NCBI GenBank assembly: GCA_028284585.1
Contig: JANQRK010000008.1
Coordinates: forward strand, 1,695-65,694
Direction of reading: 5' to 3'
From: Chromatiales bacterium
GTDB taxonomy: Bacteria > Pseudomonadota > Gammaproteobacteria > Chromatiales > Chromatiaceae
DNA length: 64,000 nucleotides
The stretch's first letter is position 1. The number at the start of each line of letters is the position of its first letter. This document shows, in pieces, positions 26,598 through 32,658 of this stretch. The translations under genes and the position numbers were made by a program. Under the pieces are notes generated by a model. That model saw nothing but the letters and a program-made list of their open reading frames with translations. It was not told where the DNA came from and did not search any database.

Positions 26598-26996
26598 TCA
26601 GTTCGCCAGAACCCAAACCAGCCTGCCGATCCAGACCATCACTAGCGTGTACAGGATCCAAGCCCCCAGCAGCACCCCTGCACGATTACGGAGCGCCCGC
26701 TGATCGAGTGCACTCACCATCATCGGGACAAATCGTGTTATCGCAGCCCATGGTCCTAGGACGAACACACCGAGCGCAGACAGCAGTAAGGTCATTGCTA
26801 GCTCGGGATCATCGGTGTTGTGGGCGACGAGCGCGAGTCCACAACTGATGGCCAATGACCCGACGAAGAGCAAGGCGCTGAACCCTGCACGCTGGATCAG
26901 CGCGTCGACAAACCCGGGCGCGGCGCCGCGCCAAACATGCTCGAGTCTGTGTCGGAAGCGCTGGATCAGTGTCGCCCTAGTCGCCGGCAAAACCAA
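26598..26996 (-). CDS. Hypothetical membrane protein
   Basis: 132-aa ORF with three hydrophobic helices; overlaps the upstream gene stop. Confidence 0.5.
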   Translation of the reverse strand: MVLPATRATLIQRFRHRLEHVWRGAAPGFVDALIQRAGFSALLFVGSLAISCGLALVAHNTDDPELAMTLLLSALGVFVLGPWAAITRFVPMMVSALDQRALRNRAGVLLGAWILYTLVMVWIGRLVWVLAN

Positions 26997-27711
26997 TCGA
27001 GGTAAGGCGCAGGCCCTGTAGATCTATACCTTTCTCGAGCAGATTGGCCTGCGTCGCATCAGCCAGCTCACGCTGGCGTGCCCGATCGCGGCGGCGCTCG
27101 GCGTCCGCCCGCTGACCCAGTGCAAACATCGTTTCATACACCAAGCCTTCCGCCACTTCCTGCCGCTGTCTTGGCGATGCCTTCGCGAGCATCGCATTGT
27201 CGAGCAGGTTGGTGGCAACCTGGCTGCGTACAGCGGCGACGCGTTTGCGTGTCGGTGCTGCCTTTTGATGCGCGATCATCCACATCGTGATCCAGTAGGC
27301 ACTCATGGCATCGGCGACATTGTTTGAGCGCAACCCATAGGGCGCCATATCACGGTCGAAATCGACGAGCACGTTATTCGAGGCCATCACTGCTGCGATG
27401 TGACCGGCCTTGGCGGGATCTGCCTTCTGCACAGCCGTGGTAAATTTCTGTTTGACGCGCTTGGAGACGAGCGGATCTGGTGTATAGGTGAGGGCTTGTT
27501 TTGCCCGAGCATGCAGCGCATCACTGGCCTGACCTTGGCGGCTACTCGCAGCATCACCCGCCTGTTTCTTGATTGCCGCATTGACTGCAATCGTCCCCGC
27601 GATATTGACACCGGCGGTGTTCGAAGCATTGAACATCCCCAGGTAATCCATGGCAGCCGCATGCTGCACGCAGCCGATCAGAACCAGCGAAACCCACAGT
27701 CGAAACATCAT
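26977..27711 (-). CDS. Secreted hypothetical protein, DUF6683-like
   Basis: AGGAG RBS 6 nt before ATG 27711; signal peptide (CVQHAAA); GLRSNNVADAMSAYWITMWMIAH; GIDLQGLRLTSIGF. Confidence 0.7.
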   Translation of the reverse strand: MMFRLWVSLVLIGCVQHAAAMDYLGMFNASNTAGVNIAGTIAVNAAIKKQAGDAASSRQGQASDALHARAKQALTYTPDPLVSKRVKQKFTTAVQKADPAKAGHIAAVMASNNVLVDFDRDMAPYGLRSNNVADAMSAYWITMWMIAHQKAAPTRKRVAAVRSQVATNLLDNAMLAKASPRQRQEVAEGLVYETMFALGQRADAERRRDRARQRELADATQANLLEKGIDLQGLRLTSIGFAGD

Positions 27712-28100
27712 CGTCATCTCCTTGTAGTCCTGGCAGCACCCGCTTCGAGAGTCGAGAACAACGCGGCTTAGCAAGCCCGTGAGCAGATCTGCCACTATCG
27801 AAGTGCCTCTTAAAGATACAGGGCACGGAACACGGGCGCAGGGTACTGACGCACAAACGCGGTTCGATCGGGAGAGACAGTCGAAGATGGGCGCCATGTT
27901 GATCTCAAGTCGTCCCAGAGTATGACTGAGAGACCATAGAGGCCTGCCCGTCGGATCGCAATATCAACGCCTTGGTGACTAATCCCACATAGGCGAGGCG
28001 CTCAGTGGGCTGTAATTCACTTAGGCGCCAATGCAACGGTCAGGTGTACCCGCGACAGCCGCGCGTCCCGGTATGCGGCATGAGATAAGGAGACAGGCTG

Positions 28101-28652
28101 ATGAAGACCTCTGTCGACGCGACCCGTAGGTCGAGCCGCCTACGCAACGCTTCCGTATCAACCAACAGCGCACTGTGCCTGCTCGTTGGAGTCGCTTTGT
28201 ATTTTCCTGATTCAATGGCCGACAATGCCTCAGGGTCGAAGCTCGCGACACTGCCCAGTGCGCTACAAGTCTATTTTCCCCCGCCCGGACTCCTCCCGCC
28301 GTGCGAATGTCTGGATGTCACGGATATCGATGTCGACGGCAAGAGAGACGAGTGGCGCCCCTGCGCAGACATTAATGGCTACAACGAATTCCTGAGCGGT
28401 TGCATCACCATTGATGGCCTAAGCCGTTCTGATTCGCCGCACGGTGTTGGGCCACAATCTCATCAGTTATTCTTCCCACCACCGGGTTTTCTTCCCTCAT
28501 GCAAGTGTCAAGACGTTACGGACTTGGACAGCGACGGCAGTACCCAGGAGCAACGCGCCTGTGCCGTCATCAACGGCTATAACGAATACCAAAAAGGCTG
28601 TATCCAGATCGACACCGGCGACCATGGTCCAGGATCACTGACTAGCCGTTGA
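28101..28652 (+). CDS. Small secreted Cys-rich protein with two tandem 50-aa repeats
   Basis: Signal-like N-terminus; repeats at 28266-28415 and 28464-28613, 32/50 residues identical by manual alignment, with divergence concentrated at synonymous positions. Confidence 0.8.
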   Translation: MKTSVDATRRSSRLRNASVSTNSALCLLVGVALYFPDSMADNASGSKLATLPSALQVYFPPPGLLPPCECLDVTDIDVDGKRDEWRPCADINGYNEFLSGCITIDGLSRSDSPHGVGPQSHQLFFPPPGFLPSCKCQDVTDLDSDGSTQEQRACAVINGYNEYQKGCIQIDTGDHGPGSLTSR

Positions 28653-29005
28653 CCCAATGATGCGCAGCCGGCCTGCGGTGTCCTAACCTGGGACCGAGTT
28701 GAGGCAGATGCCAAGTCGCCGACAGAGCAACCGGCGCGACAACAGATCGCAGTTCAAGTTGGGCCTGCCCTGGGAACCCAGTGCGCGCTGATTTGTCGCA
28801 ACCTAAGGTGCAGCGTGGTCGTGTGATCTCGACTACGACGAACCTGATCTGCAAGCTGCCAGCCTAGGATTTTCCCTCGGCAGCGGCCAGCCCCCTAGTA
28901 GCTGGTAGCATAGTAAGGAAATCAGCAGGTAGCAGCATGTGTATCTCGGGTATGGGCCCGAGAGCCACTGAGTGAAATTTCGCATCGGTAGAGTTGAGTC
29001 GTTGA

Positions 29006-29911
29006 ATGAGTAGCGCAAAATCGGCCAGTAGCGACTGTAGGAGCTCGACCCGCAGGCTAACGGGCACACAGCGTAGCGGCTATCTGGCGCGGCTATGCTC
29101 GATCGCCTTGTTCGCCGCATCACTGCAGGCCGCCGCACTACCGCCGAATGAACCGCTTGGGCGACCAGTGAATACTGGGTTGACGCTTCATTTCGATGAC
29201 CATGGTCTCGACATCGATGCGCGCAATGCGGAACTGTCCGAGGTATTGTCGCAGCTAGGCGAACAGGCGGGCATCCGTATTCGCTATAGCAAACAGCGGC
29301 TGGGACAAACCACCGTCTCGCTGTCGTTGAATGACACCCCTTTGAACAAGGCCATTGCGCTCATCTTGCAGGGCCACTCCTATCTTCTGAATCTCGATGA
29401 CCAAGCGCGCACCTTGGTTGTGCTGTCGACCGGTCGCGGGACGAAGAATAGGTCCGTCATTCCAAAGAGCATAGGTGTACGTAACCTCAAGACCAAGGCC
29501 AGCACAGCGCCATCCTCAACCAAGGATAAAAAAAACCCGGATAGCACCACTGCAACCGCCTCAGAACCGGCCTTGGAGTCGGTAATCGAAGACGCGGCGA
29601 ACAGCTTGTATGGCGAGGACTCCGATGAAGTGTCGGCGTTGGAGCCATCGATGGCCATGGAGCAACTCGCTGCAATCGATCACCCCGATGCCACCGAGCT
29701 GATCATTCGGGCAACGTCTGACAATAGTAATGTGGTCGATAGGGCACTGGCAGCAGATGCACTATGGCAGCATGCATCGAACCAAAGCTTCGCCGACCCC
29801 GAGGTGAACCAGGCCCTTGAAAGACTGGCCGCCGATGCCGATGCGTCGGTGCGCAACATTGCCGAGCAGGCGCTCAGCGATATGCAGGCCTATCTCGACA
29901 AGGAACAATAG
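29006..29911 (+). CDS. Hypothetical exported protein: secretin/TonB N-terminal (STN)-like domain + HEAT-like repeats
   Basis: LDIDARNAELSEVLSQLGEQAGI...SLNDTPLNKAIALIL; C-terminal ALERLAADADASVRNIAEQAL; start uncertain. Confidence 0.65.
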   Translation: MSSAKSASSDCRSSTRRLTGTQRSGYLARLCSIALFAASLQAAALPPNEPLGRPVNTGLTLHFDDHGLDIDARNAELSEVLSQLGEQAGIRIRYSKQRLGQTTVSLSLNDTPLNKAIALILQGHSYLLNLDDQARTLVVLSTGRGTKNRSVIPKSIGVRNLKTKASTAPSSTKDKKNPDSTTATASEPALESVIEDAANSLYGEDSDEVSALEPSMAMEQLAAIDHPDATELIIRATSDNSNVVDRALAADALWQHASNQSFADPEVNQALERLAADADASVRNIAEQALSDMQAYLDKEQ

Positions 29912-29987: not shown

Positions 29988-30407
29988 TCAGTCGCCGATC
30001 CGCCGAAACTCGCGTTCCAACCGGTACTCCTCCGAAGCGACGAACGCTTCGATCCGCTTGGCACGTCGCTCGAGCTCCGCGAAGCGCTCTCGTAGGTCGG
30101 CAGCGGCACTCGGCCCGGCGGGTGGCACCTGAGATGATTCGTCCTGGTCGAGGTTGGAACCCGGAGTAGCCGTGTCAGAAACCCGCTCAGCGGACCGACG
30201 CTTCCTCTCTGTACGGCCGTTCCAGTACCAGAAGGCCAACAGGGCCGGCACGGTCAATAGCGGTGCCAAGATTAGGCCGATGACTAACAACGCGATGCTG
30301 GTCCCACGGCTGCAGCCGAAGGTGTCGGACAGTCGGCGGATGGCCTGCTGGATCGCGCCATCGCGATGGGGGTTGCGGCCTGGGCCGTCGTGTCGATATC
30401 CGCTCAC
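29988..30407 (-). CDS. pspC: PspC-like protein with atypical N-terminus
   Basis: C-terminal LERRAKRIEAFVASEEYRLEREFRRI; follows pspB with ATGA overlap. Confidence 0.75.
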   Translation of the reverse strand: MSGYRHDGPGRNPHRDGAIQQAIRRLSDTFGCSRGTSIALLVIGLILAPLLTVPALLAFWYWNGRTERKRRSAERVSDTATPGSNLDQDESSQVPPAGPSAAADLRERFAELERRAKRIEAFVASEEYRLEREFRRIGD

Positions 30408-30643
30408 TTGTGCCTCCAGTCCGGGGCGTCCGCGTCGAGTATGGTCTCGATGGAGACGAGCCTCTGCTCGAGCCTGTCCGCAAGCCCACGAAGCTCATCC
30501 AGTTCAGCGCTCGCAGTAGGATCCGCGCTGTCTCCCGAACGCATCCGCATCCATAGCGTGATGTAGTGAAAGACGATCCAGGTCGGAATGATGATCCCGA
30601 GAAAAATGATCACCGGAATCATCAGGGCCCAGAAGATGCTCAT
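30404..30643 (-). CDS. pspB: Phage shock protein B
   Basis: PTWIVFHY, LADRLEQRLVSIETILDADAPDWR. Confidence 0.92.
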   Translation of the reverse strand: MSIFWALMIPVIIFLGIIIPTWIVFHYITLWMRMRSGDSADPTASAELDELRGLADRLEQRLVSIETILDADAPDWRHK

Positions 30644-30801
30644 CGTTTGCTCCGATCGGGGTGATGGGATAGGCAGGCCAGGCTATGACGCTGCAACTTA
30701 CCCGGCGTCCATGGGCTCACCGGCGACGGCAGTGCGCCGGCCGACGCTTTCGCATGCCACATGGACTTCAACGAGAAATCCATTGGATAGCTGCCTCCCG
30801 A

Positions 30802-31473
30802 TCAATCGCGTACCTCAGTGCCTACCTGCGCCTTGAGGCGCTCGAGGTCGGCCTCGATCTCCGCCTCGGCCTCGAGATCTTCGAACTGTTCCTCGAGGGT
30901 CTTGGATTTCCCGAGATCATAGACCTCGGCGTTGGCTTCCAAGTCGTCGATGCGCCGCTCTAACGACTCATAGCGATTGAGTGCGTCGTCGACTCGACCG
31001 TCGTGCAGCGTAAGGCGAATTTTGACGCGTTCCTTGGCACTCTTCATCCGCATCTCGAGACCCTTTTTACGCGCCTTTGCCTCGTTGAGCTTGGCCTGAA
31101 GTTGCGCGAGGTCGGCATCGTGGCGCTGCAGACTCTCCTCGACCAGCATTAGCTCGTCGCGCAAGGTGCCCGCTTGCTCCTCCAGCTTGTGCTTGACCAC
31201 CAGCGCACTCTTGGCAAGGTCCTCACGGGACTTGCGCAGCGCGAACGTCGCCTTCTCCTCCCAGTGCGCTTGCTTTGCGACCAGCTTTTCTAACCTGCGC
31301 TCCAGCTCCTTCTTGTCGGCGATGGTCCGCACCGCCTGCGAGCGGACCTCGACGAGGGTGTCCTCCATTTCCTGGATCATCAGCCGGATCATTTTCTCGG
31401 GATCCTCGGCCCTCTCCAGAAGGGAGTTGATGTTGGCGTTCACGATGTCGGTGATGCGCGAAAAGATACCCAT
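30802..31473 (-). CDS. pspA: Phage shock protein A
   Basis: MGIFSRITDIVNANINSLLERAEDPEKMIRLMIQEMEDTLVEVRS. Confidence 0.97.
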   Translation of the reverse strand: MGIFSRITDIVNANINSLLERAEDPEKMIRLMIQEMEDTLVEVRSQAVRTIADKKELERRLEKLVAKQAHWEEKATFALRKSREDLAKSALVVKHKLEEQAGTLRDELMLVEESLQRHDADLAQLQAKLNEAKARKKGLEMRMKSAKERVKIRLTLHDGRVDDALNRYESLERRIDDLEANAEVYDLGKSKTLEEQFEDLEAEAEIEADLERLKAQVGTEVRD

Positions 31474-31517
31474 TGCCTGCTTGCCTCTCGGTAGAGTGAT
31501 TTGCCTATCTCCACCAT

Positions 31518-31533
31518 TGCGAACAGCATGCCA
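31518..31533 (-). promoter_or_regulatory. sigma54 (-24/-12) promoter of pspA
   Basis: TGGCATGCTGTTCGCA matches TGGCACG-N4-TTGCW with correct GG/GC spacing. Confidence 0.85.
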
Positions 31534-31538
31534 ACCCC

Positions 31539-31551
31539 TAAGGCGTTGATT
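31539..31551 (-). promoter_or_regulatory. IHF binding site
   Basis: AATCAACGCCTTA is a full match to WATCAA-N4-TTR, lying between promoter and UAS. Confidence 0.7.
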
Positions 31552-31585
31552 CCTGGTGCGTGAACCCGGCCAATCGAAGAAAAAT

Positions 31586-31599
31586 GGCGAATTACACTA
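31586..31599 (-). promoter_or_regulatory. PspF upstream activating sequence
   Basis: TAGTGTAATTCGCC, closely matching the enterobacterial psp UAS as recalled. Confidence 0.7.
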
Positions 31600-31641
31600 C
31601 CCATTATCGCTAATTAGTAGCTAAAAAAGTATTATTAGGCG

Positions 31642-32658
31642 ATGGAGACCCTACCTCCCATCCATGGTGAAGACCCCGTATTCCTGGAGGTGGTCGAGGA
31701 AGTCTCTCGCATCGCGGCACTCGACCGGCCCTGCCTGGTGGTCGGAGAGCGCGGCACCGGGAAAGAGCTGCTTACGTCCCGGCTGCACTATCTTTCGCTG
31801 CGCTGGGACGGCCCGCTGATCAAAGTCAACTGCGCCGCGCTGAGCGAATCCTTGCTGGAGACTGAGCTGTTCGGCCATGAGGCCGGCGCCTTCACCGGCG
31901 CGCAACGGCAGCATATGGGACGCTTCGAGCGCGCTGACGGCGGGACGCTGGTGCTGGACGAGATCGCAACGGCGTCGGCCGCGGTGCAGGAGAAAGTCCT
32001 GCGCATCATCGAATACGGCGAGTTCGAGCGAGTCGGCGGTCGCGAGACCATAAAGGTGGACGTAAGGGTGGTCGGCGCAACCAACGTCGACCTCCCCGGT
32101 CTTGCGATCGAAGGCGAGTTCCGGCCAGATCTCTTGGATCGCCTCGCGTTCGAGGTAGTCACCGTGCCGCCACTGCGCGCCCGCCCGGCGGACGTGACGG
32201 CGCTCACTGACGAGTTCGGTCTAGAGATGACTCGGACATTGGGGCGCGACCTCTATCCGGGTTTCAGTTCGCGCGCCCGCGCCGCGCTGCTCTCCCACGA
32301 TTGGCCCGGCAATGTGCGCGAGCTCAAGAACGTGGTCGAGCGCGCGGTAAGTCGAGCAAGAAATCTCCAGGCGCCGATCGACGCCTTGGTGATCGATCCC
32401 TTCGACAGTCCCTGGCGGCCCGGTATCGCCACCCACTCGCCCCCAGCCGCAACACAGGCCCGAACTGCAGCCTCGACCGCCGCAGCCGAGCGCCCGACGG
32501 CCACCGGATTCTCGGAGCGAGTCGCCGCCTTCGAGCGCCAACTGCTGGTAGACGCAATGTCTGAAACGGGCAATAACCAGACCAAGACCGCTCGCCGTCT
32601 CGACCTCAGCTACCACCAACTGCGCCGCCTTCTCGCCAAGCACGACTTGCGGAACTGA
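31642..32658 (+). CDS. pspF: Phage shock operon sigma54 activator
   Basis: GERGTGKE, ELFGHEAGAFTGA, LVLDE, WPGNVRELKN, C-terminal HTH; no N-terminal regulatory domain; divergent from pspA. Confidence 0.96.
   Translation: METLPPIHGEDPVFLEVVEEVSRIAALDRPCLVVGERGTGKELLTSRLHYLSLRWDGPLIKVNCAALSESLLETELFGHEAGAFTGAQRQHMGRFERADGGTLVLDEIATASAAVQEKVLRIIEYGEFERVGGRETIKVDVRVVGATNVDLPGLAIEGEFRPDLLDRLAFEVVTVPPLRARPADVTALTDEFGLEMTRTLGRDLYPGFSSRARAALLSHDWPGNVRELKNVVERAVSRARNLQAPIDALVIDPFDSPWRPGIATHSPPAATQARTAASTAAAERPTATGFSERVAAFERQLLVDAMSETGNNQTKTARRLDLSYHQLRRLLAKHDLRN

Follow-up and report, generated by a model that had tools for sequence, protein, structure and literature searches.

Calcium-binding loops of the DxDxDG type were reportedly set out as a structural motif class by Rigden and Galperin in 2004. 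The Excalibur signature, DxDxDGxxCE, places its acidic residue at position 10 of such a loop, and EF-hands place theirs at position 12 (PMC8391695). The thrombospondin-type-3-like (T3-like) repeats of bacteria, represented by the OmpA-family protein 5wtl and by the families TSP_3 (PF02412) and TSP3_bac (PF18884), are extracytoplasmic, come as tandem units of 23-27 aa and carry the motif DxDxDGxxDxxDxC. For gene neighborhood, DdvA/DdvS of Myxococcus xanthus provides the closest point of reference that we found; ECF sigma/anti-sigma signaling there is reported to proceed via a periplasmic TPR-CHAT domain (PMC11506125). The gene described here (P0001; 28101-28652, forward strand) lies in a 64,000-nt stretch of contig JANQRK010000008.1 from a Chromatiales bacterium, hereafter referred to as the window, and was defined by its ORF and translation together with two orthologues of the same architecture. 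By its sequence, the 183-aa product (miniprotein) is an uncatalogued, lineage-restricted tandem mini-domain that is kin in kind to the disulfide-framed extracytoplasmic modules built around a DxDxDG loop.

The original prediction described two 50-aa repeats with a 66-aa period and 32 of 50 residues identical, each with four Cys and a DxDxDG motif, and this description proved correct on every count, with all eight Cys invariant in the three known members. Repeat 1 (residues 58-107, YFPPPGLLPPCECLDVTDIDVDGKRDEWRPCADINGYNEFLSGCITID) is encoded at 28272-28421 and repeat 2 (residues 124-173, FFPPPGFLPSCKCQDVTDLDSDGSTQEQRACAVINGYNEYQKGCIQID) at 28470-28619, both on the forward strand and both delimited by self-alignment and by alignment of the six repeat copies. 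The FPPPG motif starts at residues 59 and 125, and a linker of 16 aa separates the two repeats. The best ungapped 50-aa self-match of the protein had 32 identical positions, compared to a maximum of 13 and a mean of 9.3 among 200 shuffles. A repeat search over the gene at the DNA level found none, and codon positions 1, 2 and 3 were identical between the repeats at 40, 37 and 19 of 53 sites, respectively. From the codon-position pattern and the missing DNA repeat, the duplication is old and has been maintained at the level of protein rather than DNA; it is not a recent DNA duplication. Repeat 1 copies from different lineages shared 48, 37 and 36 of 50 residues, compared to 30-36 (once 37) of 50 with the repeat 2 copies. 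Thus, repeat 1 copies are closer to one another across lineages than to repeat 2, which places the duplication before the lineage split.

The start of the gene was likewise found to be conserved. A ribosome-binding site, AAGGAG (28087-28092, forward strand), was read from the sequence 8 nt before the ATG; the block AAGGAGACA at this site is invariant in all three loci, which also share the opening codons MK[TA]S. Residues 1-40 (28101-28220, forward strand; core ALCLLVGVALYF) were assigned as a signal peptide from the hydrophobic window and the equivalent segments of the orthologues. By manual analysis, this segment has a basic n-region followed by a hydrophobic core that spans residues 24-35, and its residues at -3/-1 are small, as is expected of Sec-exported proteins, and its cleavage-type site, SMA/D, corresponds to TLA/E and ALA/D in the orthologues (AXA-type). 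The predicted mature protein is about 143 aa and 15.3 kDa with a pI of 4.3 and eight Cys. Two other export routes were considered and appear unlikely: the RR that Tat export would use is not conserved, and a lipoprotein reading is disfavored by a non-conserved Cys26 without lipobox.

Selection on the gene was estimated by the Nei-Gojobori method from comparison of the window to the 72%-identical L007 orthologue (overall dS of 0.74). The dN/dS ratio was 0.22 for the whole gene, 0.04 for repeat 1 and 0.16 for repeat 2, compared to 0.93 for the inter-repeat linker and 0.44 for the signal peptide plus N-terminal linker. The low ratios of the repeats relative to the linker and signal regions indicate that selection acts on the two modules. 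These ratios bear on whether the ORF may be spurious or a decaying remnant without function, a reading that draws on its position beside a pseudogene remnant in a degraded cluster (described below) and on its near lack of relatives. Against this reading, the 183-aa frame is intact in two lineages (the window and L007) at 78% nucleotide identity with dN/dS as low as 0.04-0.16 in the repeats, conservation also covers the ribosome-binding site and signal peptide, and the adjacent remnant has acquired stops and indels over the same time. We consider a non-functional ORF very improbable and 28101-28652 to be, with high probability, a genuine gene for an exported protein. The conserved start, ribosome-binding site, signal peptide, AXA-type site and purifying selection on the repeats thereby lend support to the original claim of secretion.

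Further upstream, two blocks, GTGACTAATCCCACATA (27975-27991) and CTGTAATTCA (28010-28019), both on the forward strand, are identical in the window and L001 within intergenic DNA that has otherwise diverged between the two. A sigma-70 consensus scan upstream of the gene found no promoter; the two blocks are possibly a promoter or operator of the miniprotein gene. With regard to annotation, the called start of the L001 protein, P0003 (L001 5913-5993), is probably 27 codons too far upstream, and the conserved MKTS start and AAGGAG box of L001 align with the miniprotein start of the window.

Relatives were found to be exceedingly few. Word-indexed searches of 5.8 billion proteins, both by sequence and with a profile of three members, returned only P0001, P0002 and P0003, of which P0002 (183 aa; the L007 orthologue) is 72% and P0003 57% identical to P0001. 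By phmmer against 1.84 billion representatives, one true relative was detected along with two spurious matches, which fell on long proteins of repetitive sequence that included a chlorophyll a/b-binding polyprotein. Back-translated patterns, including the degenerate DVTDxDxDG...CAxING, were scanned against contig collections from genomes, metagenomes and viruses and revealed no further miniprotein. The same was true when the repeat profile was compared to 100 relatives (most of the same genus) and to 400 genomes of the class, where matches at chance level fell on unrelated proteins with DxDxDG-type loops. The genome from which the window derives was searched for a miniprotein paralogue and none was found. 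On these searches, the miniprotein is confined to a single narrow uncultured lineage with three known members.

Alignment of the six repeat copies revealed 27 of 53 columns to be invariant, including D17, D20, D22, D24, G25 and all four Cys; the invariant residues run, in order, F, P, P, G, P, C, C, D, V, T, D, D, D, G, R, C, A, I, N, G, N, E, G, C, I, I. The Cys of each repeat are spaced CxC-x17-C-x12-C. The loop has the consensus D1-x-D3-x-D5-G6-x-x-x-[E/D]10-x-R12-x-C14, in which D1, D3, D5 and G6 never vary and 6/6 copies have an acidic residue at position 10, such that every copy combines DxDxDG with a further acidic ligand. Position 9 varies (D, Q, T or N); position 12 is Arg in all copies. 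In the window, conservation and direct reading of the sequence place the calcium-type loop of repeat 1 at 28323-28352 (D75-x-D-x-D-G-x-x-D-E84) and that of repeat 2 at 28521-28550 (D141-x-D-x-D-G-x-x-Q-E150), both on the forward strand. As judged from these residues, the loop is of a non-canonical type: Arg replaces the Glu12 of EF-hands, and the acidic residue sits at position 10, a feature shared with Excalibur.

The resemblance to Excalibur (PF05901) extends to that of a small, secreted, Cys-containing bacterial module with an acidic ligand at position 10 (DxDxDGxxxE). By contrast, the Cys at loop position 9 of Excalibur is absent from the miniprotein, and the remaining Cys pattern and flanks differ. 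Assessed by HMM and by the signature DxDxDGxxCE, the miniprotein is not an Excalibur protein, as Glu10 is present and Cys9 absent. Similarity to the EF-hand-like loops of envelope proteins is limited to the loop itself: over its first 11 residues, 'DIDVDGKRDEW' of the miniprotein is almost identical to 'DLDSDGRRDIW' of a chance-level profile match, but the miniprotein has neither flanking helices nor Glu12, and the rest of the protein is unrelated.

Models of known families did not recognize the protein. Scans with Pfam and NCBIfam assigned no family at E≤10, and six-frame genome scans with TSP_3 PF02412, TSP3_bac PF18884, Cu-binding_MopE PF11617 and Excalibur PF05901 never matched the ORF at the same threshold. 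The curated cut-off for membership in TSP_3 or TSP3_bac is 25 bits, and the miniprotein lies below it. With the whole-protein profile, a sequence search of the PDB returned nothing beyond a chance match to a nanobody. When the repeat profile was used instead, the sole PDB match was 5wtl (E of 0.35), of which five consecutive T3-like repeats share a single register with the profile (DxDxDG, C, G, GC) at the cost of one gap. Comparison of the repeat alignment to the T3-like repeats of 5wtl by hhalign gave a P of 6e-4 and a probability of 29%, with 42% identity over 26 columns. An HMM built from the 5wtl repeats scored 5/6 miniprotein copies above at least 99% of composition-matched shuffles and the sixth above only 91%. 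Taken together, Pfam/NCBIfam, the four additional models, the PDB and the structural search described below yielded no significant match, in agreement with the original statement that the domain could not be assigned to a known family.

The match to 5wtl raises the question of whether the miniprotein is a highly divergent but true homologue of the bacterial T3 calcium repeats, to which an N-terminal FPPPG..CxC element was added, and hence a variant of a known family. Like T3-like repeats, the miniprotein is predicted to be extracytoplasmic and is built of tandem units, in which DxDxDG is followed by a Cys at +8 from the Gly, a Gly at +13 and a closing GC; the spacing of its C-terminal Cys pair equals that of T3 (C14...GC26) to within one residue, with a weak profile match. 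Common descent is further suggested by the shared register with five consecutive repeats of the only PDB match, by the hhalign P value and identity, and by the five copies that exceed nearly all shuffles. There are also differences. The miniprotein unit is about 50 aa rather than 23-27 aa, has the extra FPPPGxLPxCxC element with two more Cys, and occurs in only two copies joined by the 16-aa linker. Of the T3 motif, D1, D3, D5, G6 and C14 are present, whereas neither of the ligands D9 and D12 is kept, position 12 being Arg. In addition, the PDB E value and hhalign probability are weak, one repeat falls at the 9% level of shuffles, and TSP_3 and TSP3_bac gave no match at E≤10. Thus, we regard T3 descent as fairly unlikely, and the resemblance to 5wtl as a weak lead toward distant ancestry or convergence, not as membership. 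T3 descent is a question of ancestry and is compatible with the calcium- and disulfide-based adaptor mechanism outlined below.

AlphaFold2 modeling of the whole protein from the three-sequence alignment gave a pLDDT of 34 and was unusable. For a single repeat with the six-repeat alignment, the pLDDT was 65, which is of low confidence; short strands flank the loop in this model and one short helix is present. Neither model includes ions. Foldseek comparison of the single-repeat model to the PDB returned 0 matches.

For the function of each module, we favor a scheme in which Sec would export the acidic protein of about 15 kDa to the periplasm or to the outside of the cell, where each module of about 50 aa would probably form a small beta-rich unit. 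As in Excalibur, the loop DxDxDGxxxE would bind one Ca2+ per module, with ligands from the side chains of three Asp, a main-chain carbonyl and the acidic position 10, and the four Cys (CxC...C...C) would form two disulfides per module in the oxidizing periplasm to clamp the loop. Calcium binding together with disulfide formation is likely on this evidence, although with considerable room for doubt. The four invariant Cys per module, in the arrangement CxC...C...C, are also compatible with a tetrathiolate site, and the protein is small, acidic and free of catalytic features; it might thus bind Zn2+ or Cu+ through its Cys in place of disulfides and serve as a periplasmic metal-binding or -buffering protein. 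Paired Cys in the periplasm are normally oxidized by the Dsb system, and the conserved Sec signal leads to this oxidizing compartment. The third and fourth Cys are spaced as in the disulfide loop of T3-like repeats. Neither His or Met ligands nor neighboring genes for metal homeostasis are present. We therefore assign the metal-site reading little probability. With disulfides and calcium as favored above, the rigid acidic tandem would act as a calcium-stiffened binding or adaptor element of the cell envelope; an adaptor role is the most likely because the miniprotein lacks catalytic features. If the scheme is true, the miniprotein represents a compact, uncatalogued scaffold of about 50 aa that unites a calcium loop of the Excalibur type and a clamp of four Cys, and it could be of interest to those who work on protein folds and on the design of metal-binding peptides.

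The gene neighborhood of P0003 provides an indication of where the miniprotein came from. P0003 is encoded on two metagenome contigs, L001 and L002, in a cluster with the order zf-HC2 anti-sigma-type protein, M48/TPR protein, TPS-domain exoprotein (829 aa), miniprotein, TPR-CHAT protease (734 aa), ShlB/FhaC-type TpsB (572 aa), HEAT protein (301 aa), pspF and pspABC. Every L001 cluster protein inspected has an export-type N-terminal signal. The psp proteins of L001 and the window are 73-91% identical (pspA 91%, pspF 83%), with pspC at 49%, and this high identity indicates that the L001 organism is a close relative of that of the window. DdvA/DdvS is the closest studied system that we found to this parent cluster, which has a zf-HC2 anti-sigma-type protein and an exported TPR-CHAT protein. 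In DdvA, CHAT is reported to be fused to the anti-sigma factor, and no mention of a miniprotein, TPS pair or HEAT/STN protein was found (PMC11506125). The window itself has lost the anti-sigma and TPR-CHAT genes.

Remains of the cluster were detected next to the miniprotein gene. Window positions 28760-28899 (forward strand) match the 3' end of the ShlB gene of L001 (10414-10551) with 70% nucleotide identity (E of 3e-12) and represent the last 46 or so codons of a ShlB/FhaC-type TpsB gene, now with stops and indels. Its translation, 'GLPWEPSAR*FVAT*GA...DYDEPDLQAASLGFSLG', aligns with 'GLRWEPDANWFVALYGA...DHDEHDLQDAGVHFSIG' of L001, and the C-terminal motifs are kept. L007 carries the same TpsB remnant at 816-862, after its miniprotein gene. 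Comparison of this remnant to the intact L001 cluster points to a deletion of about 3.9 kb in which CHAT and the greater part of TpsB were lost. In the genome of the window (94.75% complete), homologues of the TPS, CHAT, ShlB, anti-sigma and M48-TPR proteins of L001 are all absent. Since the window and L007 loci are collinear, we assume that the deletion in each is the same event; if so, the selection on the miniprotein estimated from the window and L007 postdates the deletion. The miniprotein is, as read from these comparisons, a survivor under selection of a largely deleted TPS/CHAT/TpsB envelope cluster, a context that the original prediction did not cover. The place of the L001 TPS exoprotein is occupied in the window by a DUF6683 protein (306 aa, E of 2e-11) encoded at 26977-27897 on the reverse strand, divergent from the miniprotein gene. 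A TpsA-type substrate was also considered as an identity for the miniprotein and rejected: it has no TPS domain (PF05860), which in L001 is on the separate 829-aa neighbor.

Homologous CHAT/TPS modules were found elsewhere in the class. Homologues of the L001 CHAT protein (35-43% identity) were detected in 17/300 genomes, and 6/10 of the CHAT neighborhoods that were fetched also had TpsB and/or TPS homologues. A secreted DUF928 protein (226-253 aa) is encoded in four of those neighborhoods, and the same four plus a fifth encode a CHASE2 nucleotidyl cyclase. Loci L030, L031, L033, L034 and L035 present a conserved envelope module of CHASE2 cyclase, TPR-CHAT, DUF928, TpsB and TPS in which the order varies. 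No functional study of CHAT with TPS or DUF928 was found in the searchable literature. Like the miniprotein, DUF928 is a small signal-peptide protein in clusters with homologous CHAT, TpsB and TPS (30-43% identity), and the conserved part of both begins with aromatic-x-P-P...P. By contrast to the miniprotein, DUF928 lacks conserved Cys, a DxDxDG loop and an internal repeat. It accompanies the CHASE2 cyclase, whereas the L001 cluster lacks both and instead has the zf-HC2 anti-sigma and M48-TPR proteins, the miniprotein and HEAT/STN. Homology of the miniprotein to DUF928 (PF06051) was examined and rejected, with no Pfam match and an hhalign probability of 0.16% against four DUF928 proteins. By analogy of position, the miniprotein may be a non-homologous stand-in for this small secreted component.

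Extended further, this analogy would make the miniprotein a periplasmic substrate, inhibitor or adaptor dedicated to the TPR-CHAT/TPS machinery, a positional analogue of DUF928 that in the window is a relic without its machinery. Its placement in L001 and L002, immediately flanked by the TPS gene on one side and the TPR-CHAT gene on the other, fits such a role, as does the small secreted DUF928 found in its stead in the homologous CHAT/TpsB/TPS clusters of the class. Small disulfide-rich proteins are often protease inhibitors, and this general knowledge also speaks for the proposal. In the hhalign comparison to DUF928, the best pairing, itself not significant, involves the Y-x-P-P...P start motif common to both. 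Against a relic stands the strong purifying selection on the miniprotein over a dS of about 0.7 in genomes without CHAT and TpsB; homology to DUF928 is, moreover, undetectable. The genome of the window also contains, on contig C79 (12553-15892), a trio of Crp-like regulator, CHASE2 cyclase (39% identical to that of L031) and DUF928, with no CHAT, TPS or TpsB beside it. This trio suggests that DUF928 follows the sensor and not the protease, such that the slot may belong to the sensor, and it weakens the stand-in analogy. We find a role tied to CHAT/TPS improbable, and return to the envelope adaptor: the miniprotein would have begun as an accessory to a two-partner-secretion/TPR-CHAT-protease envelope module, and purifying selection despite loss of CHAT, TpsB and TPS suggests that it works without them.

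The other gene retained from the cluster is located 353 nt after the miniprotein gene and is followed in the window by the inverted psp operon. It encodes an exported protein of 301 aa (29006-29911, forward strand) with a weak STN/secretin-N0-like N-domain and C-terminal HEAT repeats, assigned by Pfam matches to HEAT_2 (E of 2e-5) and STN (E of 8e-5) that are both below the curated cut-offs; a weak match to the PilQ N-domain was also observed (E of 0.059). This HEAT/STN protein is 64% identical to the product of the L001 gene in the same relative position. It has three members among 5.8 billion proteins and none in the 100 relatives, and in the known members its gene is always downstream of the miniprotein locus. 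Thus, from gene order and distribution, the miniprotein and HEAT/STN genes are a co-inherited pair that has outlived decay of the cluster. The present action of the miniprotein would most plausibly be exerted together with this co-retained, lineage-restricted periplasmic protein. The link is one of adjacency and co-distribution in three or four sequences of one lineage, and we view HEAT/STN as a possible partner, with the chances somewhat against it. The mechanism as a whole, that of a Sec-exported, disulfide-clamped, Ca2+-binding envelope adaptor that now probably acts with HEAT/STN, is on balance slightly favored.

A bolder proposal can be built on the same pair. The disulfide-clamped calcium mini-domain would be a new fold, and the miniprotein and STN/HEAT proteins would form a self-sufficient periplasmic ligand-receptor or adaptor pair, a lineage-specific replacement for DUF928 and the sensor arm of CHAT/TPS modules that outlived loss of the protease and the secretion pair. 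Taken in full, this proposal is distinctly unlikely. The history of the locus also suggests that the small secreted component and a periplasmic STN/HEAT protein of a CHAT-protease/two-partner-secretion cluster can stay under selection after protease and transporter are lost, and it offers a handle on the wiring of envelope modules that are widespread and unstudied. Downstream of this pair, gene order also differs between the two relatives, with pspF-pspABC (29988-32658 in the window, 11647-14323 in L001) inverted relative to the HEAT gene.
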